A DNA stretch of 64,000 nucleotides from Chloroflexota bacterium (GTDB lineage: Bacteria; Chloroflexota; UBA11872; VXOZ01). The notes beneath the pieces were generated by a model that made no database searches, was not told the DNA's origin, and saw only the letters and a list, made by a program, of their open reading frames with translations. Position numbers and translations under genes: made by a program. Of this stretch, positions 14,446-50,622 are shown one piece after another. Position 1 is the first letter of the stretch. Every line of letters begins with the position of its first letter. The stretch covers positions 2,216 through 66,215 of the forward strand of contig JAJEAH010000042.1 in assembly GCA_022824225.1 (NCBI GenBank), written 5' to 3'.

Positions 14446-15330
14446 CTAGTGGCGTTTGCCTTCCACCGCCGCGTAGACGCTGCCGACGGTGCCGCCGACC
14501 ACCTCGCAGCCTTCTTCCTCCGCAATGGTGTTGATCTCATCCACGATGGCATCCAGGGCGAGCCGCTTTTCCCCGCTGGCGTCACCGTAGAAATGGGTGT
14601 TGTGGGTGAAAGGCATGATGATTTTGGGCCAGGCGTCGTCGTAGTCTGCCATGTCGGCCCAGGCCTGGCGGATTGTCTGCCGGTGGCTGTCGCCGTCGGC
14701 GCCCTCGATGCGGAGTTCCATGGGCAGGTGGGGCGCGCGCCGCCGCACCTGGTCGCACGTGAGCGGGATTTCGTAGAAGTCCAAGTCGCCGGGAAAGAGG
14801 CGGTTTGCCTTGTGGGCGTAGTGGGCATAGGTCACGGCGCCCTGCCACACGGCCTTGGCGTCGATGTACTGCCGGCCCGGCGACGAGACGCTGCCGTGGG
14901 TAAAGCCCGTGGCCGCCAGCGCGGGATACGTGTGGTCGTTGGCGGAAAAATTGCCGCCCCGAAACGTAGTGGGCCGCTTGCCGATGGCGTTTGCCCACTG
15001 GTCGGTGACGGCGGTGAACATGGCCACTTGCTCGTCGAAGTTGTATCCGCCCAGGTAGTCCGTATAGCCAAGCCCGGTGTCCTGGGGATGGATGTGCAGG
15101 CCGATTTCGAAGCCGCGCCGCTCCAGGTCGCGGTAGAGCGCGGGTTGCGCCGCCGCGGTCTGCGCCACGATGAAGAAGGTCGCGCGCAGGCCGTACTCCT
15201 CCAGGGTGTCCGCCAACCCGGTGACCGACCGCTCGCTGATGCTCCAGTCATCCGGCCCGCCGTGGATGGAATCGTCCATGAGCTGTTCGCAGTCTTGCGT
15301 GAAGATGACGTAGAGCGGTTTTCCGGCCAT
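14446..15330 (-). CDS. polysaccharide deacetylase-like (NodB/CE4-type) protein
   Basis: 294 aa. FTQDCE, TFFIV, LHIHP and RGGNF segments resemble the CE4 deacetylase motif order. Assignment is by pattern only. Confidence 0.5.
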   Translation of the reverse strand: MAGKPLYVIFTQDCEQLMDDSIHGGPDDWSISERSVTGLADTLEEYGLRATFFIVAQTAAAQPALYRDLERRGFEIGLHIHPQDTGLGYTDYLGGYNFDEQVAMFTAVTDQWANAIGKRPTTFRGGNFSANDHTYPALAATGFTHGSVSSPGRQYIDAKAVWQGAVTYAHYAHKANRLFPGDLDFYEIPLTCDQVRRRAPHLPMELRIEGADGDSHRQTIRQAWADMADYDDAWPKIIMPFTHNTHFYGDASGEKRLALDAIVDEINTIAEEEGCEVVGGTVGSVYAAVEGKRH

Positions 15331-15549
15331 AGGTCTCTATCCTTTGCGTATTCTCCACCAATTCTCTCGTACAGGCCATCACGTAGTGCTCATGCCCGCT
15401 GTACGTACATGCGCACCTTCAAGGGCGGAATGAGCCTGGAACGGACACCGAATCCCAAGAATCAGTCTAATCCTTGCCTACGCACCCCTAGCGCCTTGCC
15501 GTTTCCTCGACAGGCTTGTTGTGAGTGCTGTTTGGGGCCAGTTGAAGAA

Positions 15550-16326
15550 CTAGCCTTGGATGCTCTGCTCTAAGAAGCTCACGATCCGGTCTCGGTTTGC
15601 GTTCAGGCTGGAGAACTGTTTCTCGCAGACATCGCTAAACCGCGCAAGCACCTTGCGGTTGATCCCTTCCTGGTCCTCGAATATCGCCAATGACCGAAAC
15701 GGAACCCCCCACCTTTCGAATTGAAGCAGCGCAATTGTCGCGTCACGAGTTCTCGCATCGTTTGGCAAGGCGTGCACGAACAAGGGCTCTGGCAACCCGC
15801 TTACGCGACAATCGACTGTGTAAACGGCTTGAGGATCAAGGCCGGGATCGTGCCAACCAAAGTCTCTGCGTTCTTCAGGCACGGATTCGGCAAGTAAGCT
15901 CCTAAAGTCATCTTCAAAGGTGGAGTGAACCCGCTCTCTTGTCAAATATGTGACATCCGTGATCTTGAGCAATGCCTGCACAAAAGAGTAGAGGGCGTCG
16001 CCGTACTGATCATCGGGCACTGCCAGCAAGAGTTCTCCCTCCCGGTCCTCAATCTGAAAAACGGAGAGCGCATTGGATATGATCTTCTGGCGCGTACCGC
16101 GGCGAAGGTCTTGATCGTCTATCGAGTAGGTGAGATGCATGTAGGTGTGCGCTTCGTCTGACAAGACCCAGCCGGTCTCATCCCTCTTCAGCACTATCGA
16201 CAGGTGATCGCCGTCGTCGAATTGAAAAGGCGTTAGGACACGGTAACGGCCTATCCCCTCGGGCACAAGCCTTACTTGGGCGGAAACTTTTTCGTGAAAG
16301 TCTCTCTCAACCGGGGCCATCGACAT
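15550..16326 (-). CDS. hypothetical protein, second gene of a low-GC two-gene module
   Basis: 258 aa, in a region visibly lower in GC than the flanks. No catalytic motif recognised. From memory it may resemble DUF1828/DUF1829-type proteins; this is unverified. Confidence 0.5.
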   Translation of the reverse strand: MSMAPVERDFHEKVSAQVRLVPEGIGRYRVLTPFQFDDGDHLSIVLKRDETGWVLSDEAHTYMHLTYSIDDQDLRRGTRQKIISNALSVFQIEDREGELLLAVPDDQYGDALYSFVQALLKITDVTYLTRERVHSTFEDDFRSLLAESVPEERRDFGWHDPGLDPQAVYTVDCRVSGLPEPLFVHALPNDARTRDATIALLQFERWGVPFRSLAIFEDQEGINRKVLARFSDVCEKQFSSLNANRDRIVSFLEQSIQG

Positions 16327-16334
16327 GACTAGAC

Positions 16335-16814
16335 CTACTCCTGGAAGAGACTCAGTTGCTCGTTGGGCGGCAAGACAAAGTTGCAGTCCTCAAAGAGACA
16401 CTCGATCGCTCCCTCCCGGCTACTATACCTGTCAGTCAATGCTGCGTAGGTGTCTTCCTTTGCTCCCAAGTGCTGGTACCGCATTGTCGCCATGTGAATG
16501 TGAAATCCCAGGAATCTCTCATTCTCGATCTGATTATTGTGTTCGTGGCTCCTTCCGTTACAGCGCCGAAGCCGAAACAACTGATTGGTCTGCGGAATGC
16601 GCACCGCCAAGATGATCGAGAAGTCAAGGACGTTGATTCTGTTCTGGCGCACTATTAGATGAAAGTGGCTACCGGCATCGCCGATAAGATCTAGGGCTGC
16701 TTCCTGGTGTCCTCGCTTAGGCCGAAGGTGAAAACGATCGCGCCAAGATTCGGGCAATTGCTTTCGCTCTTGGATGAGATCGCTGATTTGACTGTCGGTG
16801 AACGTGATTGCCAT
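16335..16814 (-). CDS. hypothetical protein, first gene of the low-GC two-gene module
   Basis: 159 aa. Its stop lies 8 bp upstream of the next gene's start, suggesting translational coupling. No recognised family. A possible Rx5H segment (RRCNGRSH) is too weak to call HEPN. Confidence 0.5.
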   Translation of the reverse strand: MAITFTDSQISDLIQERKQLPESWRDRFHLRPKRGHQEAALDLIGDAGSHFHLIVRQNRINVLDFSIILAVRIPQTNQLFRLRRCNGRSHEHNNQIENERFLGFHIHMATMRYQHLGAKEDTYAALTDRYSSREGAIECLFEDCNFVLPPNEQLSLFQE

Positions 16815-17124
16815 GAAGTCAAACTCGAACCGAGGACGCAGGGGGCAAACCAGCGGCAGAGTTCTGCCAGGCTACTAAGCCCAGATTAGACGAGAAAGGT
16901 GCTGACTAATGCAATCGGCTCCCGCCCAAAATCGTTGTCTGAGTTGTGAGCAGCACTGAAGCCGGTCTATAGCGCAGGGGTTTCCGGGTTCGGTACGGAC
17001 TCTCTGATGCAGGTCCTGCCCCAAACCCTATTGATTGACGGCAACTCAATTGACGATTACCACTTTCGTGACCAGTCTCTCCGTTGCCTAACGCCGGGGC
17101 GGTGACGCTCGCCGCTTAGCCCCG

Positions 17125-18237
17125 CTACCGGCCCTGCTCCTCTTGCGCCATACGATCAACATCTACCATCACATCCGTTAGCAGGTCCACGTCCACTTCG
17201 TACCAGAGGCCGAAGGTGCTTGTGCCGCCCGGGCCCAGGATTTCTTCCGCGATCTCTCGCACCACGTTGCGGTCTGCGTTTTGCACGCCGAAGTCGGCGA
17301 ACGTCGAGGGCAGATTGACCGACTGGTTGAAGCGGATGAGCTTGCGCACCTCGGCTTCGCCCTGTTGCATGAGCGCCACCGAGATGAGAATGCCGAACGC
17401 CACTTGCTCGCCGTGCACGCCCTCGTTGGTGGCATGCTTCGAAAAACCGGGGTGCAGGCCGTGCTCGCCGCCCACCACGCCGCAGGCCGGTCCGGCCACG
17501 CCGCCGCCGTAGACGATGGCTTCCACCACTTTGTCCACGGCCTCCGTGGCCGCGCCGCGCTCGCAGGCATGGTAAGCAGATTCGCCGTATCCCAGAATCG
17601 TATCGTAGGTCCACTCGGCGATGGCGATGGCCGCGCCGGTGGGAAAGACGTTATCGAAGCCGAGGATGCGTTCCGTGCCGCTGCGGTGGCGCAGTTCCCG
17701 GGCGATGCGGCCGCCCGTCCAGGTCGGCAGCGCGTCGGCCATGCCGGCGGCCAGCCAGCGCCCGCCGCCCTGGGCGATGATGCGCGTATCGGCAATCACC
17801 GTGTGGGGGCCGACGTACCAGACGTTGCGGTCGGCGTCGCCTTCGATGCTGGCGCTGAAGGTTGCCGTGGCGTTGGTGGAGGCCACCGTCGGCACGCTGA
17901 TGAGCCACGCGCCCATCTCGTGGGCGATGGCCTTGGCAGCGTCCACGACGCGTCCGCCGCCGGCGCCGATGACCACGTCGGCGCCAAATTCCTTGCCCTT
18001 TGCCACCAACGCGTCCACTTCCGGCCGCTTCTTATCCACGTGACTGCCGTGTTCGACGTGGTGGGGAATGCCGTGGGCGTCCAGCGCGCCGGTAACGGTA
18101 TCTTGGATGGCCGCGACTGCCCTGCCGCCGCCAACGATGAATGCCTTGCTGCCCAGCGCCGCGGCATGCGCCCCGACGTCGCCCACTACTCCCGGACCCA
18201 CCACAAAGCGCAGCGGGTGAACGATCGTTTTCTTCAT
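17125..18237 (-). CDS. iron-containing alcohol dehydrogenase family protein (glycerol dehydrogenase-like)
   Basis: 370 aa. GAGGGRVVDAAK matches the Fe-ADH/DHQS-like GGGSxxDxAK dinucleotide motif, with a histidine-rich metal-site region downstream. Confidence 0.75.
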   Translation of the reverse strand: MKKTIVHPLRFVVGPGVVGDVGAHAAALGSKAFIVGGGRAVAAIQDTVTGALDAHGIPHHVEHGSHVDKKRPEVDALVAKGKEFGADVVIGAGGGRVVDAAKAIAHEMGAWLISVPTVASTNATATFSASIEGDADRNVWYVGPHTVIADTRIIAQGGGRWLAAGMADALPTWTGGRIARELRHRSGTERILGFDNVFPTGAAIAIAEWTYDTILGYGESAYHACERGAATEAVDKVVEAIVYGGGVAGPACGVVGGEHGLHPGFSKHATNEGVHGEQVAFGILISVALMQQGEAEVRKLIRFNQSVNLPSTFADFGVQNADRNVVREIAEEILGPGGTSTFGLWYEVDVDLLTDVMVDVDRMAQEEQGR

Positions 18238-18415
18238 GCGAATTCACTTTCTCAACTAAATGCACTTTACTAAGCCACACTGAGCATCCAGTTCTACGGC
18301 CTGCGCGAATTGGCTAACGTCTTGCGAACTAGCGGCACTGGGCCGCCCAAGCGCCAGACGTTACTTGACGGATTACCAAGAACGATTGTCTGTGATGGTC
18401 AGACCAACCTTGATG

Positions 18416-18742
18416 CTAATGCCACTTTGTGCCGCACCTATTGCAAACGTAAATCCCGGTACTACTCGCGTAGCGGTAACGTGTCTGACTCCAGGTAGGT
18501 TTACACTCCTCGCAACCATTGCGCTCTTGTGAGCTGAGTTTGACCGGGCTCCCTGTGATCTCGTGTGACAACGAAGGGTCGCTGGATTGTATTCTCTTAT
18601 CAGTTCTCACTTTAGGCTCTGATGGTCGGGGCTCTTGCTTGGTGCTTGCAGACTCACGGGGCCCATTAACTATGATCAACCCAAGAATGATCCACCAAAG
18701 AATGACCACTACAAGGAAAGTCAGTATCGCTGTGAGATCCAT
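18416..18742 (-). CDS. small membrane protein with a C-terminal CxxC...CxxC zinc-ribbon-like motif
   Basis: 108 aa in an AT-richer patch. It has an N-terminal TM helix and C-terminal CEEC...CNRC. Confidence 0.35.
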   Translation of the reverse strand: MDLTAILTFLVVVILWWIILGLIIVNGPRESASTKQEPRPSEPKVRTDKRIQSSDPSLSHEITGSPVKLSSQERNGCEECKPTWSQTRYRYASSTGIYVCNRCGTKWH

Positions 18743-19541
18743 TTGATTCTCCTATATAGCCGACTCTGGCATTGGAATTGTCAGTTTTCTTACTGTGCCT
18801 ACTCCAATATACTCGTTCAGACCACTCTGAACCGCTCTCAGAGTCTCTCTCTTATCGCCCTCCTTTCAGAAACTCCGATTCTGGGACTAATCGTCTTCTG
18901 AATGCCAATCTCCGCAGCTCTGCCATAGTTCTTGTGAGCCACTCGCGTCAATCGATTCAATTTCCAAGTCTGCCTCGTTTTCACTCCCATCCCAGCCACA
19001 GTCGGCTGCTTCCTGCCAAGCGGCGAAGGCTGCGGCGCTTGCGATCTCATCATCATATTCGTCCCAGTCGTTTACGTCGTCGTACGGGTCAGCGTCTTCG
19101 TTTGCCAATGAGGCTGCGCGCGCCGCTGGCTTCGCGGACCGACGACTCTTGTCGCGGCCCCCGTCATCAAGGCGGTCAGGGCGCGCTTTTTGCGCGTCCG
19201 CCCCTGCGACGGAGATCGAGAAATGCCATCCGGAGGCTCTGCGCAACATCTGCTTCTCCCAATGCACACCGGATTAGCCGTCTTCGATTACCGACTGTGC
19301 CGGCCGCTCACGTACGTTGATGGTTCCGGAGCCTAGGCCGCAACGCCCGCCCCGGCGCGCAACGGCAGCGGCGCATGCGCGCGAGGCGGAAGCGGATTTC
19401 TATGGCCCGCCCCAGGGCGCAGCAGCGGCCCCATGCAGCGCGTAGCGGCAGGCGCCGCCGCGAACCCCGCCGGTTGCGGCCGGTTTTCAGCCACCCATCG
19501 GGAAAGACGGTCCGGCGAACGGCGCGTTCGCGGCGTCTCCT

Positions 19542-19886
19542 TTACGGGATCAGTTCCAGTATGGCGAGCACGATCGCCGCGGCGACGACCAGCGCGCCCA
19601 ACCGGAGCGTCATGCGCAACTCAAGAGCCTGCAAGCGCGCGTCCACTTTGTCTTCCAGCGCTGAGTACTGCGTATTCATCTGTTGCTCGAACGCATTGAA
19701 CCGCGCGTCTATCCGTTCCGCAAGCGCATGCAGATCGGCCTTGGTTGCGACCGCTTCGCGCCCTTCATTCACAGCGCATCCAGCAGGGCTTTGGCTTGGG
19801 GCGCGCTGAAGCCCGCCTCCGTGAATGCCTCGAACGCCTTGTGGGTGTCCCTCACTGCCATGCGACGACTCCTGTGGGATATTCAA
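19542..19886 (-). CDS. small coiled-coil protein with C-terminal TM anchor
   Basis: 114 aa. A heptad-like segment is followed by LGALVVAAAIVLAILELIP. It has the same architecture as 47699..47950. Confidence 0.4.
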   Translation of the reverse strand: MNIPQESSHGSEGHPQGVRGIHGGGLQRAPSQSPAGCAVNEGREAVATKADLHALAERIDARFNAFEQQMNTQYSALEDKVDARLQALELRMTLRLGALVVAAAIVLAILELIP

Positions 19887-19910
19887 GTCCGGCGGAAGGG
19901 CGCGCTCGCC

Positions 19911-45480: not shown

Positions 45481-45818
45481 CTCCAAGTTGCTCGTACGTG
45501 TACAAGAGTCCTCGCGTTTGGGTCTGAAAGCCCCTCTCCCGTCGAGGGAGAGGGTTGGGGTGAGGGTGAATGTTGCCAGTCAGGCAAACCTGCCCATAGT
45601 AAACAACCACGCATTCACGCTATCCCAACGCAGCAGCAACCTACCCTTCACAATTCTCCTCCGGACGATCGAGGATAGCCTGTATCTGCGGCTTCAGAAC
45701 TGCCCAAGAGGGCAACCACAAGGGTTGCCCCTACGTGTTGGTCGTTTGACGGCGCCGTACGGCCCGGTGGCCGGCGGCAGCCAGGTTGCCTCTACGTGTT
45801 GTTGGTAGCTTGACGGGA

Positions 45819-47246
45819 CTACCCTTTGTACTTCTCCTCCGTTTCGTCCAAGATGGCCTGGATTTGCGGTTTCAGCGCCAGCAGGCCCTCTTCCACGCCC
45901 GCGGTACCGGCGTAGACGTTGTTGAGCCATTCCTTTACCTCTGCGGAACCGCTGAAGGCGAAGTTTGGCACCACCCAGCCGGGGTCATAGCCGCCCGGAT
46001 AGTCGAGGACGTCGATGATGACGTCCAGCCGGACCTTGTCTTTCAAGTCAGGGAAGGTCTCGTTGGCCCACTGCTCCATGAGGTCGGCGCGCATGGGAAT
46101 CGTGCCTTTGCCTACGGCCCAGTTCAGGGTGCTGCCCTGCCAGGCCACGTATTGCCAGGCTTCTTCGGGATGGTCGGCGTTCGTCACCACACCGTTGGCG
46201 TCCGTCCACTGGAAGGAGGCCGTGGTCTGCACTGTCGGCAACGGCGCGAAGTCGATAGGCAGGTCTTCGTCGCGAATGCGCTGCATCATGTCGCCGAACG
46301 TGCCGCTGGAGAGCGTATTCAGGAACGCCAGTTTGCCCTGGTAGAAGAGGTTGACGATGCTGCCCTCGCCGAACAGGTCCGCGCCCTGGCCCGGTTTGAG
46401 CATGGCGCCGTGCTCATGCACCATGGAGAAGTAGTCTTTGTAGCACGCCATCGTCTCCGGGCTGTCGCACACGGCCGTGCGGCGGTCGTCGGAAATCCAC
46501 TGGCCGCCCCAGAGGAACGGGAGATTGCCGACCAGCGCGCCGGTGCCCATGTTGGAAGCGCCCATGGTTGCAACGGCGCCGCCCTCAGTAACGGTCGTCT
46601 GCCGCGCCATGTCAATGTAAGCGTCCCAATTCCATTCCGGGTCGCCCCACGTGGCCGAGGGCTCGTTGAGGCCGGCTTTCTCGATGATCTCCCGGTTGTA
46701 CGGCAGTGCCATCATGTTGCCGCCGGTCTGGTTGGGCAGGCTGACGATCTCGTTGCGAATGCGGCTGATGGAATTGAAGATGTTCTGCGGATAGTTGCTC
46801 AGGTCGAAGTTGTCGCGCTTGATGTAGTCGGCCAGATCGATGAAGTACCCGAGCAAATACGTGGCGTTGTCACCTTCCCAGGCGGCATCGGGTTGCTCAC
46901 CGGCCGCAAAGGCGGTGCGGAACGACTCCTGGTAGGCGTGCATGTTGTGGATGACTTCCACCGTAATGCCCGGATGGGTCTCTTCGAACGGGGCAACCAG
47001 GGTTTCCGGATAGTTCTCGAGCTGACGGGCATTGAGCCAGGTGCCGTAGCGGATGTGCACCGGTTCCTTTTCGGCGGCAGCCTCTTCCGCCTGCGGCGCG
47101 GCTTCCTCTTCCATTTCCTCAGCGGCGGCATCGGGCTCCATCATCGTGGCCTGCCCGCAAGCGGCAAGGAAGGCGCCAGCGCCGGCCATCCCAATGCCGG
47201 CGAGGATTCCCCGCCGGGTCAATCGCAACTCATCACGCGTAGACAT
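45819..47246 (-). CDS. ABC transporter substrate-binding lipoprotein (family 1 SBP) with TAT signal
   Basis: TRRGILAGIGMAGAGAFLAACG has a twin-arginine motif and lipobox. An acidic Ala/Glu-rich linker is followed by an SBP_bac_1-like body. Start chosen at MSTRDELRL. Confidence 0.75.
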   Translation of the reverse strand: MSTRDELRLTRRGILAGIGMAGAGAFLAACGQATMMEPDAAAEEMEEEAAPQAEEAAAEKEPVHIRYGTWLNARQLENYPETLVAPFEETHPGITVEVIHNMHAYQESFRTAFAAGEQPDAAWEGDNATYLLGYFIDLADYIKRDNFDLSNYPQNIFNSISRIRNEIVSLPNQTGGNMMALPYNREIIEKAGLNEPSATWGDPEWNWDAYIDMARQTTVTEGGAVATMGASNMGTGALVGNLPFLWGGQWISDDRRTAVCDSPETMACYKDYFSMVHEHGAMLKPGQGADLFGEGSIVNLFYQGKLAFLNTLSSGTFGDMMQRIRDEDLPIDFAPLPTVQTTASFQWTDANGVVTNADHPEEAWQYVAWQGSTLNWAVGKGTIPMRADLMEQWANETFPDLKDKVRLDVIIDVLDYPGGYDPGWVVPNFAFSGSAEVKEWLNNVYAGTAGVEEGLLALKPQIQAILDETEEKYKG

Positions 47247-47698
47247 CAGTCTGCCTCCTACAACTACTGTTGGCACCACATACCAGATATGTGCGCCCTT
47301 GCGGCGAAAGGCAACACAGTGAACGCCATGGGCGATCCGACTACACCCAGGCATCGCTACTCTGGCGCGTTGTGCCTACAATCTACTTTCTATTGACAGC
47401 GTTTGTCAAGACATGCAATAGGGATCACACTGCATTCGACCTGGCGAGAATCCAGAATACCTTTCATGAGAATCTTTGACGAAACCGAGAAGGGCTACGA
47501 TGCGCGTGCGCCACAAGGGAGAGAGTTAGCAAAGCAGCATAGAGTGGCGCCGTCGTGACAGGTCGAACTGTAGTTATTTCTTAGTAGGTGAATTGCCCGC
47601 CAGAAAGAACCCTAGGCCGGGGTACAGGGCGATGCCTACCCTGATTTGCATGGACGAGATGCTGGGAGACCCGGTCCAAACTGGGACGTATGCGTAGC

Positions 47699-47950
47699 CT
47701 AGCCGCCGATTAGCAATTCAGCAAGTCTAGGCAACACAACCAAAGCAGCACCGAAAAAGAGGATCCACCACCTTAGGGCGCGGATTTCGCTGCGCAGCGA
47801 ATCAAACTCACTACGAAGGTCGTCGTTGTTCCTGCGCGGACTGGCGATGCTACGGGACAGTGCTGAGATTCCGGCGTCCAGCCTAGCGACGTCAGCCTTC
47901 AACTCGGCCTTCATCTGTGTTAGGTCGGCTTTAAGTTGCCAAGTGCTCAT
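47699..47950 (-). CDS. small coiled-coil protein with C-terminal TM anchor
   Basis: 83 aa. Heptad-like LKADLTQMKAELKADVARLDAGISAL followed by WWILFFGAALVVL. It has the same architecture as 19542..19886. Confidence 0.35.
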   Translation of the reverse strand: MSTWQLKADLTQMKAELKADVARLDAGISALSRSIASPRRNNDDLRSEFDSLRSEIRALRWWILFFGAALVVLPRLAELLIGG

Positions 47951-48202
47951 AGCCGCCTTCTATGCGGCTTACGCGCTCGCCGTGGGCAGGTAGTTGCTCC
48001 GCCACCAGGTAGCCTTCTCCCACTGTAATTGGGTTTACCTTTCCTTATACTACATATATGCTATAAATACAAGAGACCAACACCTCTAAGCCTCAAAAAC
48101 GGTCTAGTGATGCGCTGCAAAATACGCTCCTCAACTACGGGTCAACTACTCGCCCCAGGAATAGTCTAGCACCGGATTCCCCGGTCGTGAATCAGGAATC
48201 GG

Positions 48203-49141
48203 CTAGTTTGACTGGTAACTACGCTTGGCATCCGGCAGGCCCACCGGCTTGCCCAGCGCTTCCGCCATGGCGCGGACGTGGTAGGGCAGCGCGCCGCAGC
48301 AGGCGCCGATGAAATCGATTCCTATACCCTCTGCCTCCTTGGCATACTCGGCCATCACGAAGCGGGAGACGACCCGGGGTTCCACTCGTGGGTAGAGGCC
48401 GGCGCGGCTGATGGCTTGGTTGAATACCTCGCCGGGCTCCAGTTGATACGCGGTGGGCTGGACGCAGACGGGCGCCGCAACCGCAGCCCGTATCCGCCGC
48501 GCCATGTCGTTCATGGTCTGCCAGGGCCGCATGCAGTTCAGGCCCACCACGTCGGCGCCGTTGTCTACGAGACGCTTAGCCGCTTCCACCGGATCGTAGC
48601 CGTCGCGGGTGAACTCGCTGTCGCGGAACGTCAGCGTGACCACGGCGGGCACGCCCGCTTCTTTGACAAAGGGAATGGCAATACTCGCCTCTTCCACTGA
48701 ATAGAACGTCTCGACGATGAAGACGTCCACTTCGGGGTCCATCTGTTCCGCAACCCGCCGCGCGAAGAATTCATTGGCCCGCTTGCGGTCGTCGGCGTTC
48801 AGCGGCTCCCACTTGGACGAACCGGAGTAGATGAACTGGCTGATGGTGCCGGCCACGTAGCGGTCCGGTCCGGCGGCCTCCCGCGCCAACTCCACCGCCG
48901 CTTTGTGTAGCTCCTTCTCGCGCCCGAAGGGCCGCACGCCCCAGGACATGGCTTGTAGAAGCTCCGCGCCCGCCCGGGCGAACTCCCGATGCATCTCCAA
49001 TACGGCCTCCGGGTAGTCCAAGACCGCCATGGGAATATGGGAAGCGTAGCTTCCCGCCACACGCCGTTCCAGCTCCAAGTAGTACGCGCCGTCACCGAGC
49101 AGCGGCCCCTGCGCGAGACGTTCGAGAAAGTCCGCTTTCAC
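48203..49141 (-). CDS. homocysteine S-methyltransferase family protein
   Basis: 312 aa. LGDGAYYLELERR, FIVETF, GLNCMRPWQ and GACCGALPYHVRAMAEAL (zinc-binding Cys pair) are Pfam S-methyl_trans-type motifs. It is a paralog of the gene at 1..805. Confidence 0.8.
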   Translation of the reverse strand: MKADFLERLAQGPLLGDGAYYLELERRVAGSYASHIPMAVLDYPEAVLEMHREFARAGAELLQAMSWGVRPFGREKELHKAAVELAREAAGPDRYVAGTISQFIYSGSSKWEPLNADDRKRANEFFARRVAEQMDPEVDVFIVETFYSVEEASIAIPFVKEAGVPAVVTLTFRDSEFTRDGYDPVEAAKRLVDNGADVVGLNCMRPWQTMNDMARRIRAAVAAPVCVQPTAYQLEPGEVFNQAISRAGLYPRVEPRVVSRFVMAEYAKEAEGIGIDFIGACCGALPYHVRAMAEALGKPVGLPDAKRSYQSN

Positions 49142-49658
49142 CGGTCCCCCTCCTCCACAATTGCTGCTGAACGCAGGTCTATCATACTGGAAAAAGCGCC
49201 TGCCTCCTAAGCCGCGGCGCCGGGACTCATGCGCTAGCGGGGCAACTCGGCTTGAGTATTATGTTGACGTAGGGCGGAGCCCAAGAGCGGGGTACAAGCC
49301 CCCGCGCTACAGGACGTTTTTCCGTTCCCGTGGGGCGGAGCCCAAGTGCGGGGGACAAGCCCCAATGGTGTCGCATTAAAGTCGAAAGCGAGCGATAGAC
49401 AGTCGCCGCTTGGTTTGTCAAGCTGTCGTAGGGGCACCACATTTCGTGCCCCTAAGACAGCCAAACAGAGTTTAAATAGCCATAGCAACAGAGGTTACCA
49501 TGGGATCCCAAGGCAGGAACCTAATGCGACAGCATTAGGGACAGGCCCCCGCGCTACAGGAGGTTTTTTCCCTCCCGTGGGGCAGAGCCGGTTGCCCGGA
49601 GGCCATGTGCGGCGGCAATTGCAGGCAGCGCACAGCGAACTGGGCTTGGTTCGCGGTT

Positions 49659-49932
49659 GGTAGGTATTGACTGGGGCTGCACAGGTCTGGGTGTCAACGT
49701 AAACGGCTGCTCATCAGAATGCCATACTGAGGAGTGCAGCCGCTATGCCATTCTGTGGGGTGCAGCCGATATGCCATTCTGAGCAGTTCAGCCGATATGC
49801 CATTCTGAGCAGTTCAGCCGATCTGTCATTCTGAGGAGTGCAGCGACGAAGAATCTAGTGTCGGGAGCACACTAGATTCCGCGTCTTTGACGAAGTCAGC
49901 GAACCCTGTTCGTCGCTACGCTCGGAATGACA
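49659..49932 (+). mobile_element. E-type hairpin (MITE-like) element, copy 2, with internal 20-bp tandem reiterations
   Basis: Same leader and terminal inverted repeats as copy 1. The central part carries three to four tandem ATGCCATTCTGAGCAGTTCAGCCGAT-like units. Confidence 0.6.
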
Positions 49933-49965
49933 CTGATTGCCGTCCCAAATGACATAGAGGGTGCA

Positions 49966-50102
49966 GCATTCGGCTTGGCGTGGGCGCGTGCTGCGCTCGG
50001 TTTGGCGTGGGCGTGTACCGCGTTCGGTTTGGTGTGGGCGCGTGCTTCGCTCGGTTTGGCGTGGGCGCAGGCTGCGTTCGGCGTGGCATGGATGTGCGTT
50101 CC
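49966..50102. repeat. tandem direct repeat, 27-bp unit, five copies (GYTCGGYTTGGCGTGGGCGYGTGCTKC)
   Basis: Read directly. The period of 27 keeps frame, so ORF 49927..50139 translates it as FGLAWARAA x5. It lies between the E-type copy 2 and tRNA-Pro. Confidence 0.75.
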
Positions 50103-50104
50103 CT

Positions 50105-50240
50105 GTCTTATGTCATTCCGACCCTTGCGAGGAATCTAGCGCCCCCGCAACGTGCCGCCCGCTTGGCGCGGCTCCTTAGATTCCTCACTGCGCTGCGCTC
50201 CGTTCGGAATGACATTGGATTAGTCGCTACGTTCGGAATG
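50105..50240. repeat. degenerate E-type hairpin fragments
   Basis: ATGTCATTCCGACCCTTGCGAGGAATCTAG ... TAGATTCCTCACTGCGCTGCGCTCCGTTCGGAATGACAT, plus a further CGGAATGACAT end. Confidence 0.55.
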
Positions 50241-50413
50241 ACATTCGATACTCCCTTCGCGCTACCTCTTCACCCCTCCCCGTCTCCCCGTCTTCTACAA
50301 CATACAAATGACATGAGATTTGGCCCAGCAAGGAGTTCAAGTCCAATTCTGCTAGTTCCCGCTTGGTTCCCTGTTGAGACGCGGGAGCATACTTGCTAGA
50401 ATAGGCATGTAAC

Positions 50414-50490
50414 CGGGGCGTGGCTCAGCCTGGTAGAGCGCAGCGTTCGGGACGCTGAGGCCGGCGGTTCAAATCCGCCCGCCCCGACCA
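50414..50490 (+). tRNA. tRNA-Pro (anticodon CGG)
   Basis: Cloverleaf folded by hand: acceptor CGGGGCG/CGCCCCG (C1-G72), D arm GCTC-AGCCTGGTA-GAGC, anticodon arm CAGCG-TTCGGGA-CGCTG with CGG at positions 34-36, T arm GGCGG-TTCAAAT-CCGCC, discriminator A, encoded CCA. Confidence 0.9.
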
Positions 50491-50622
50491 TTCGTGTAGT
50501 CACCCGCATGGCAGCGGCTGCCGTGCTTGTGGCTGCATTAAGTGTATGCAGGGCAGTTTCGCGTTTGTGCGACGCCGGCGGGCAGCTTAACGCTGCGTGC
50601 GGTCATTTCCGGGAGACGTGGG

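Follow-up and report, generated by a model that had tools for sequence, protein, structure and literature searches.

We analyzed a 64,000-nucleotide stretch of DNA from a Chloroflexota bacterium (GenBank assembly GCA_022824225.1, contig JAJEAH010000042.1, positions 2,216 to 66,215; this whole stretch is called the window below) and found that an island of low G+C content (GC), with two genes that we designate A and B, is an old horizontally acquired insertion between the genes for an iron-containing alcohol dehydrogenase (Fe-ADH) and a polysaccharide deacetylase. Profile comparisons assign the pair, as a divergent subfamily, to PDC-M24, a candidate system of the PADLOC catalogue in which a DUF6978-type protein A is followed by a DUF1828-type protein B. 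The most likely reading of this PDC-M24-type cassette, which we hold to be somewhat better than an even chance, is that it serves phage defense as a module of the abortive-infection or superinfection-exclusion kind. A preliminary description of the island had proposed an undescribed system, a claim that gave way to the catalogue entry of 2024.

The PDC candidates were derived by “guilt-by-embedding” in BREX, DISARM, and type I restriction-modification (R-M) systems, and PDC-M24 is listed among them as cassette CAS_00098 (FAM_00129>>FAM_00065, count 153); the same study reports that PrrC occurs nearly always within type I R-M (Payne, Hughes, Fineran & Jackson, 2024, bioRxiv 10.1101/2024.01.29.577857). 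We place the window pair in this family because a phage homologue of A passes the DUF6978 and PDC-M24A models, the profiles of the two A subfamilies align, and window B matches PDC-M24B. The window pair shares with PDC-M24 the gene order and sizes (a DUF6978-type protein of ~160 amino acids and then a DUF1828-type protein of ~258), the match of B to both PDC-M24B models, and the embedding of its homologues in type I R-M operons, which is the basis of the candidate's definition. It differs in that window A falls below the PDC-M24A and DUF6978 models, so that the link needs profile-profile comparison and PADLOC would not call the locus, and in that the window copy, with Fe-ADH and the deacetylase as neighbors, is embedded in no defense system. 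The general finding of an R-M-embedded candidate defense pair is already in the literature; what is new here is a divergent member of the catalogued candidate family, which current tools miss on account of the divergence of its A protein. Little about function follows from membership, since the family has neither mechanism nor validation on record, and no study of function turned up in literature searches on DUF1828, DUF6978, PDC-M24, DUF1829, TY-Chap, and the phage names.

Window B matched the Pfam domain DUF1828 (PF08861, threshold 22 bits) with 87.9 bits (5.5e-25) at residues 32-122, over the full 91-position model, and the same domain was matched by 64 of 64 diverse members of the B family. 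Both PADLOC models of PDC-M24B, PDLC04539 (4.7e-17) and PDLC04540 (4e-13), aligned to the N-terminal half of the protein only (residues 24-147 and 29-147, respectively). No Pfam model covered the C-terminal half, and DUF1829, a different domain that has been implicated in defense in DS-6B/HipAD, found no match in B. The family comprised 4107 word-indexed homologues in 1466 clusters at 50% identity, 250 of these below 1e-30, and nearly all members keep the architecture of ~258 amino acids. Across the 64 sequences, which are 25-52% identical, D38, D57, and F137 were invariant, and P33, G39, D40, T61, R79, G97, D164, Y169, and D172 were at least 90% conserved. B is soluble and acidic, with a maximal 19-residue Kyte-Doolittle score of 0.95 and hence no transmembrane segment.

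The N-terminal domain of B resembles secretion chaperones and YbjN. The AlphaFold2 (AF2) model of B was poor: its overall predicted local distance difference test score (pLDDT) was 62, most of the N-domain scored 73-90, and most of the C-domain (residues 160-240) scored 31-55. The input alignment of this model was shallow in diversity (70-90% identity). The C-domain may have a restriction-endonuclease-like fold according to this model. The catalytic D...(D/E)xK signature was absent from it, strand 3 having no conserved acidic residue or Lys; in both subfamilies D140, in a helix, and Y169 were invariant and D172 was at least 90% conserved, and the FEDQE stretch of window B was not conserved in the phage subfamily. 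Sequence-profile searches of the PDB with four profiles (A1, A2, A3, A7) returned nothing below E = 0.05, and a weak match to a “CRISPR-associated protein” (8y75) was discarded as not reproducible as significant.

Window A matched PHROG 27326 (2e-25). On DUF6978 (PF22398, gathering threshold 29.6 bits) it gave no match at E <= 1, and its close homologues scored 26.9-29.4 bits, just below the threshold; window A and three close homologues likewise found no PADLOC match at E <= 0.01-1. The phage A protein, 35% identical to window A, scored 46.2 bits on DUF6978, above the cutoff, and matched PDC-M24A (1.2e-8), and the window-type and phage-type A profiles aligned with a probability of 100% and E = 2e-42 (hhalign). 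By these profile scores, the window A subfamily is best described as a divergent sister of DUF6978 and not as a member by Pfam's rule.

The predicted fold of A (AF2 pLDDT 88.6, predicted template modeling score 0.85) consists of an N-terminal helix, a four-stranded beta-meander, short His-bearing strands, and C-terminal helices; it is a confident prediction with no solved relative. Among 38 window-type sequences, R84, N86, G87, S89, H90, H92, N94, E97, H105, H107, A109, T110, R112, Y113, and Q114 were invariant (residue numbers are those of the full protein; those of alignment A1, whose first row starts after Met1, are one lower). Of these positions, R84, N86, G87, H90, H92, N94, H105, H107, A109, T110, R112, and Y113 were invariant in both subfamilies, the H-x-H-x-N / H-I-H-x-A-T-x-R-Y motif being unchanged in 22 phage-type sequences that are ~33% identical to the window subfamily, whereas R81, S89, E97, and Q114 were invariant in the window subfamily only and position 97 was E or D in the phage type. 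Four His residues on neighboring strands, together with an acidic residue, an Asn, and several Arg, would be consistent with a metal- or phosphate-handling site. Like B, A is soluble, with a maximal 19-residue Kyte-Doolittle score of 1.2 and no transmembrane segment; as a control, a transmembrane ORF of the same window scored 3.08. A is near neutral (pI ~6), which made the idea of charge complementarity between a basic toxin and an acidic antidote uninformative.

The GC of positions 15350-16900 was 0.536, compared with a window mean of 0.639 (standard deviation 0.029 in 1.5-kb windows; z = -3.6), and this was the lowest-GC 1.5-kb stretch of the whole window. GC at third codon positions was 0.64 for A and B alike and 0.83-0.87 for five flanking genes. 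We compared the window with two relatives that are as close as the cassette carriers described below and were found via the deacetylase (86% identity), L208 (a contig of 3.5 Mb) and L210, in which the deacetylase gene directly follows Fe-ADH with no cassette between them; a more distant relative, L212, has the same arrangement. Homology between the window and the empty sites ends at about 17123-17138 and restarts at about 15354-15330, and these break points therefore define a cassette of ~1.77 kb (Table 1), with a GC of 0.52-0.57 across its length. The spacer of the cassette-free relatives, 261-344 bp long, is filled with a palindrome like the repetitive extragenic palindromic (REP) elements, GTAGCGCGGGGnCTTGTnCCCCGC, so the A-B insertion replaced a REP cluster. 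The same palindrome occurs in 10 copies in the window, where 0 are expected by chance.

These results bear out much of the preliminary description, in that the low-GC island, its two co-oriented genes of 159 and 258 amino acids with an 8-bp gap, its metabolic flanks, and its horizontal acquisition were all as described, the last being attested by the empty sites of close relatives and by module GC below that of the flanks in most of the other genomes (see below). Its limits of 15350-16900 mark the GC dip itself, and the inserted DNA extends past 16900. Its placing of the island in an accessory neighborhood was contradicted: the window copy stands alone as an insertion within a conserved array that looks biosynthetic, and it has been inherited vertically in that lineage. 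The closest B relatives (84-90% identity), L204-L207, have the same array as the window, in the order orf581, DegT, variable spot, Fe-ADH, A, B, deacetylase, AAT, orf400, and were 76-81% identical to the window in A, 84-90% in B, and 78-94% in the flanking genes; the cassette is retained in five syntenic genomes. Public gene calls at these loci were misleading (117 amino acids or no gene for A in L205 and L207), and A was for this reason checked by translation, which showed an intact A of 157 amino acids in every syntenic relative; decay of A in the window lineage was thereby rejected. The GC of the cassette in this lineage is still 0.46-0.52 despite ~10-20% protein divergence, which means either that amelioration is very slow or that the composition is constrained. 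In the comparison of L204-L207 with the window, the cassette lay 0.10-0.15 below its host in GC, and its divergence was comparable to that of the flanking genes.

We detected only chance-level short repeats when terminal repeats or target duplications were sought at the cassette flanks. The leader is partly conserved over ~200 nucleotides among syntenic relatives only, and a comparison of flanks across phyla showed that neither it nor the trailer, whose conservation is also lineage-restricted, is common to cassettes from other phyla. A promoter scan of the leader found no sigma-70 consensus and a terminator scan of the trailer no terminator consensus, both staying at background level. A mobile element with defined ends was rejected because of the missing flanking repeats and the lack of cross-phylum conservation of the non-coding flanks.

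The association of the two genes was complete in the loci sampled through A that could be judged. B adjoined A in 115 of 115 loci with room downstream (121 loci carried A, and 6 ended too close to it), of which 74 were metagenome loci (the 6 too short being additional to these) and 41 were IMG/VR viral contigs. In all of these other loci the order was A then B on the same strand, and the pair was retained even at 29-35% identity. In other genomes the A stop and the B start are mostly separated by 3 or 13 bp, or the two genes overlap by 4 bp; in the window, where the gap is 8 bp, the Shine-Dalgarno (SD) sequence of B (AGGAG) sits within the final codons of A. Copies compared between genomes showed saturated synonymous differences (median proportion, pS, 0.75-0.79) and a median nonsynonymous proportion (pN) of 0.24 (A) and 0.16 (B). 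Purifying selection acts strongly on both genes, and hence it is constraint, not recent transfer, that explains why B remains ~70% similar across phyla.

Loss of the partners was asymmetric. Among 80 species-representative genomes from many phyla that were sampled through an intact B, A was intact in 52, disrupted in 19, and untraceable in 9, the disruptions being 5' deletions, frameshifts, and one nonsense codon. A was inactivated repeatedly and independently in these 19 genomes (of loci L002-L081) with B intact, and the last ~30 codons of A, which carry the ribosome-binding site of B, survive in most loci otherwise deleted for A. Conversely, of 97 assessable loci with intact A, 93 had an intact B, 4 had a partial one, and none lacked it (Fisher p = 8e-8); the two samples came from similarity searches, each with one partner as query, a procedure that favors intact copies of the query gene, and the comparison is fair only because the same ascertainment bias applies both ways. 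Solo B copies were as near the query (71-75%) as paired ones. This asymmetry argues for B as the core component, functional by itself, and for A as an accessory tolerated only with B, which would make A either a dangerous effector checked by B or a part useless alone. The opposite arrangement, in which A is the antitoxin and B the toxin, was rejected on account of the 28 of 80 genomes with intact B and no intact A.

We next consider where the pair lies in other genomes. Three genes on each side of the module were clustered in the 80 B-anchored loci, and recurrent clusters were annotated. HsdS was near the module in 20 loci; in 16 it immediately preceded the module in the same orientation, often with a gap of only 3-5 bp. 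HsdR was downstream in 17, and the module was bracketed by HsdS upstream and HsdR downstream in 15. A YgjP-like peptidase recurred in 14 loci, HATPase_c_4 in 12, and HsdM in 11, and additional methyltransferases and AAA_13/AAA_21 ATPases also occurred nearby. Overall, an R-M-type gene lay within three genes of the module in 34 of 80 genomes. Module GC was below that of the flanks in 74 of the 80 loci, by 0.06 on average. The family is spread over Chloroflexota, Acidobacteriota, Latescibacterota, Gemmatimonadota, Planctomycetota, Spirochaetia, Gammaproteobacteria, and temperate Pseudomonas phages. We also observed solo B genes, with no intact A, immediately downstream of HsdS, an HSDR_N-like gene, or a Dcm-type methylase (L003, L012, L015, L026, L044; gene identities at these solo-B loci were read from sequence features), HEPN/MNT or VapBC-like pairs nearby at L034 and L051, and an ISAs1-like transposase at L039.

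In viral DNA the context is a different one. A cluster of CI-like repressors (phrog_4, phrog_6201) was found just upstream of the pair and co-oriented with it in ~35 of 41 IMG/VR contigs. A divergent version of the pair (35% identity for A and 29% for B) is also present in three temperate phages of Pseudomonas aeruginosa, where it likewise comes right after cI; the phage B matches DUF1828 and PDC-M24B. In Pseudomonas phage 5399, cI, an 84-codon ORF, A, and B follow one another on one strand, cro is divergent, and A and B overlap by 4 bp; all four of these phage-borne genes are annotated as hypothetical. A tblastn search with A and B against 72,556 plasmids gave no match.

The homologues thus occupy two independent anti-phage-type positions, within type I R-M operons and next to prophage repressors, and hence we favor the reading of the pair as a defense module. 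The conserved pairing and the defense contexts elsewhere support this side of the preliminary description. Its statement that neither protein shows a recognizable catalytic motif holds for known catalytic families, none of which was matched, and fails for conserved motifs, given the HxHxN...E...HxH cluster of A and the invariant acidic motifs of B; the profile checks it had called for identified B (DUF1828, PDC-M24B) and gave A no significant Pfam match and no PADLOC match of its own. Several observations weigh against a defense role. Window A has no significant Pfam match and no PADLOC match. The window copy has no neighboring defense gene and is co-oriented and vertically kept in a biosynthetic-looking array, and ~57% of the 80 genomes have no R-M gene within three genes of the module, by rough gene calls. 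Our literature searches turned up no experiment on PDC-M24 or a homologue of it, and a native-host test of two other candidates of the catalogue, PDC-M63 and PDC-S04, saw no defense activity. The sampling through intact partners noted above bears on the loss asymmetry, and the endonuclease-like assignment of the B C-domain is weak because of the poor model and the absence of D...(D/E)xK.

Two other readings of the pair are possible. One is a toxin-antitoxin (TA) or addiction module with no dedicated defense role, in which A would be a His-cluster toxin and B its neutralizing, chaperone-like partner. We regard this as unlikely, although a compact, translationally coupled, mobile two-gene operon with a GC lower than that of its hosts suits it, as does an N-domain in B like that of secretion chaperones, which bind partner proteins. 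Toxin-first type II TA pairs of the higBA/mqsRA kind offer the nearest likeness, being small and coupled, and an A that never occurs without B and a B that outlives the loss of A form the pattern expected of a toxin and its antidote. The putative antidote, however, is larger and more conserved than the putative toxin (pN 0.16 versus 0.24), and solo B stays intact under purifying selection and diverges no faster, an unusual behavior for an orphan antitoxin. No DNA-binding domain was detected in either protein, and neither matched a known toxin or antitoxin family, scans of Pfam, NCBIfam, and PADLOC finding no helix-turn-helix, ribbon-helix-helix, or AbrB domain; the reverse polarity is contradicted by the B-only genomes, and the plasmid search was negative. 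The earlier suggestion of a defense or TA-like module is upheld as regards the defense-type contexts, and a simple TA reading fits the data only in part. TA and defense roles are not mutually exclusive.

The second possibility, which we rate somewhat lower still, is that the pair is an accessory or regulator of R-M that modulates HsdR, alleviates restriction, or guards against anti-restriction proteins; it would then lack any autonomous function, and the window copy would be a stranded relic. The recurrence of the position between hsdS and hsdR, with gaps of 3-5 bp, in many phyla and the solo B genes that immediately follow an HsdS, HSDR_N-like, or Dcm methylase gene speak for such a role. It accounts poorly for pairs that have no R-M gene, both those beside cI in the viral contigs and those of the window lineage, where A and B are intact and have diverged like the flanking genes (76-90% versus 78-94% identity), implying continued selection without R-M. 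We consider it improbable that the cassette is a selfish mobile element of the homing-nuclease or transposition type that serves its own spread. A minimal two-ORF unit at many unrelated sites across phyla, with GC below that of its hosts, the replacement of a REP-rich spacer, the His cluster of A, and a C-domain in B that may be nuclease-like are what such an element could look like; but terminal repeats and target duplications are lacking, non-coding flanks are not shared between lineages, family scans found no integrase, transposase, or HNH/GIY/LAGLIDADG match, and there is one copy per locus. Synonymous saturation and vertical inheritance in the window lineage also mean that there is no sign of recent spread. 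Least probable of all is a housekeeping part of the array (DegT aminotransferase, Fe-ADH, deacetylase, AAT-like acyltransferase), such as an accessory pair of its pathway: the genes share the strand of all their neighbors and are kept in five syntenic genomes, but their third-position GC sets them apart, homologues outside the lineage have wholly different neighbors, and the close relatives that have the same array entirely without the pair nearly exclude this explanation.

For the favored defense reading, we propose a division of labor. B would be the core component, keeping a selected function even alone, and its N-domain, which resembles secretion chaperones and carries an invariant acidic patch (DDGD / DExHT), might bind a partner or ligand. 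A would be an accessory effector depending on B; its four His, the Asn, and the acidic residue (Glu97, E or D in the phage type) form a probable metal centre beside Arg and Lys residues, and we infer that the target of A may be a nucleotide or nucleic acid, with A acting when B detects infection or sets A free. A bolder proposal, which we put forward tentatively and think rather less likely than a defense role as such, is that the pair is a mechanistically new immune module in which B is a very strongly conserved, autonomous guard for type I R-M operons and prophage immunity regions and A is a metal-dependent effector with an unseen fold and an HxHxN/HxH centre, viable only when B controls it.

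Known systems offer likenesses of position. Like rexAB of phage lambda, a prophage exclusion operon that is co-transcribed with cI, the phage homologues are a two-gene unit directly downstream of and co-oriented with a CI-like repressor gene, and by analogy this position would predict expression in the lysogen. Whereas RexB spans the membrane several times, A and B are free of hydrophobic segments, and since no sequence or fold relation was found the analogy is one of position only. The homologues between hsdS and hsdR recall prrC, which lies between hsdS and hsdR in the prr locus, and this PrrC-like position suggests, again by analogy, a back-up or guard role. Unlike PrrC and RloC, A and B have no ABC-ATPase or anticodon-nuclease domain in scans of Pfam, NCBIfam, and PADLOC, they are two proteins where PrrC is one, and they are also frequent outside R-M loci. 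Compared with PD-(D/E)XK effectors that carry a sensor domain (Can2/Card1/VC1899, Cap4), B has D172 as the only conserved acidic residue in its strands and no (D/E)xK, a comparison limited by the low pLDDT over most of residues 160-240 and by PDB profile searches that gave nothing better than E = 0.05.

Table 1. Features of the A-B cassette, its surroundings in the window, and loci elsewhere
Feature	Position	Strand	Basis or remark
Inserted low-GC cassette (leader, gene A, gene B, trailer)	15355..17122	.	Homology breaks versus empty sites L208 and L210
Gene A, 159 amino acids, ATG start, divergent DUF6978 / PDC-M24A-family protein	16335..16814	-	ORF 16814..16335
Gene B, 258 amino acids, ATG start, DUF1828-family (PDC-M24B-like) protein	15550..16326	-	ORF 16326..15550
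Conserved core of A, residues 84-114, putative metal or active site	16473..16565	-	Invariant residues
Best-conserved B motifs, F-D-D-G-D (36-40) and S/T-D-E-x-H-T (56-61)	16144..16218	-	Alignment of 64 sequences
A-B junction: SD AGGAG 16342-16338, A stop TAG 16337-16335, 8-bp spacer	16327..16342	-	Read from sequence
Non-coding cassette leader, presumed promoter/regulatory region	16815..17122	-	Partly conserved in syntenic relatives only
Non-coding cassette trailer	15355..15549	-	Conserved within lineage only
Fe-ADH family gene	17125-18237	-	Flanking neighbor; stop codon begins at 17125
Polysaccharide deacetylase gene	14446-15330	-	Flanking neighbor
Small ORF, 108 amino acids, N-terminal transmembrane helix and C-terminal CxxC...CxxC	18416-18742	-	Second island
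Small ORF, 126 amino acids, acidic	18887-19267	-	Second island
Small ORF, 114 amino acids	19542-19886	-	Second island
REP-like palindrome GTAGCGCGGGGnCTTGTnCCCCGC	6950, 7185, 7353, 9215, 9321, 11725, 34593, 34634, 49287, 61765		Window positions
REP-like palindrome in empty-site spacer	L208:5740-6000; L210:5657-6000		
Phage A-B locus L082	Pseudomonas phage 5399, PQ758389.1: 21188-23636		Pair also in PQ738200.1 and PQ758388.1
Example loci with disrupted A	L004, L007, L010, L014, L020, L037, L046, L055, L066		

Other segments of the window also stood out in composition. A second island at 18240-19900, between Fe-ADH and DegT, has an even lower GC (0.48-0.51) and contains three small minus-strand ORFs, none with a Pfam match (Table 1). 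The content of this spot is different in each syntenic relative (nothing, a CCDC90-like ORF of 119 amino acids, an ORF of 141, or an ORF of 210), which is suggestive of a variable hot spot at a distance of 1 kb from the A-B cassette. A mild dip (0.57-0.60) at 45500-50500 adjoins the sole tRNA gene of the window, tRNA-Pro(CGG) at 50414-50490, and could be another integrated segment.

The cassette offers handles for experiment in its exact limits, in the natural empty-site controls, and in the natural B-only variants, and the P. aeruginosa phages 5399, 5371, and phita81A provide culturable entry points. H90, H92, H105, and H107 of A and D38, D40, D57, and D172 of B are the residues worth mutating, and the asymmetry of loss is a testable clue as to which partner is dangerous and which protective. 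If the defense role is real, the family would be among the more widespread uncharacterized immune modules. If the pair were indeed a new immune module, a family present across at least 10 phyla would define a new effector chemistry and guard logic and not a variant of abortive infection or TA.

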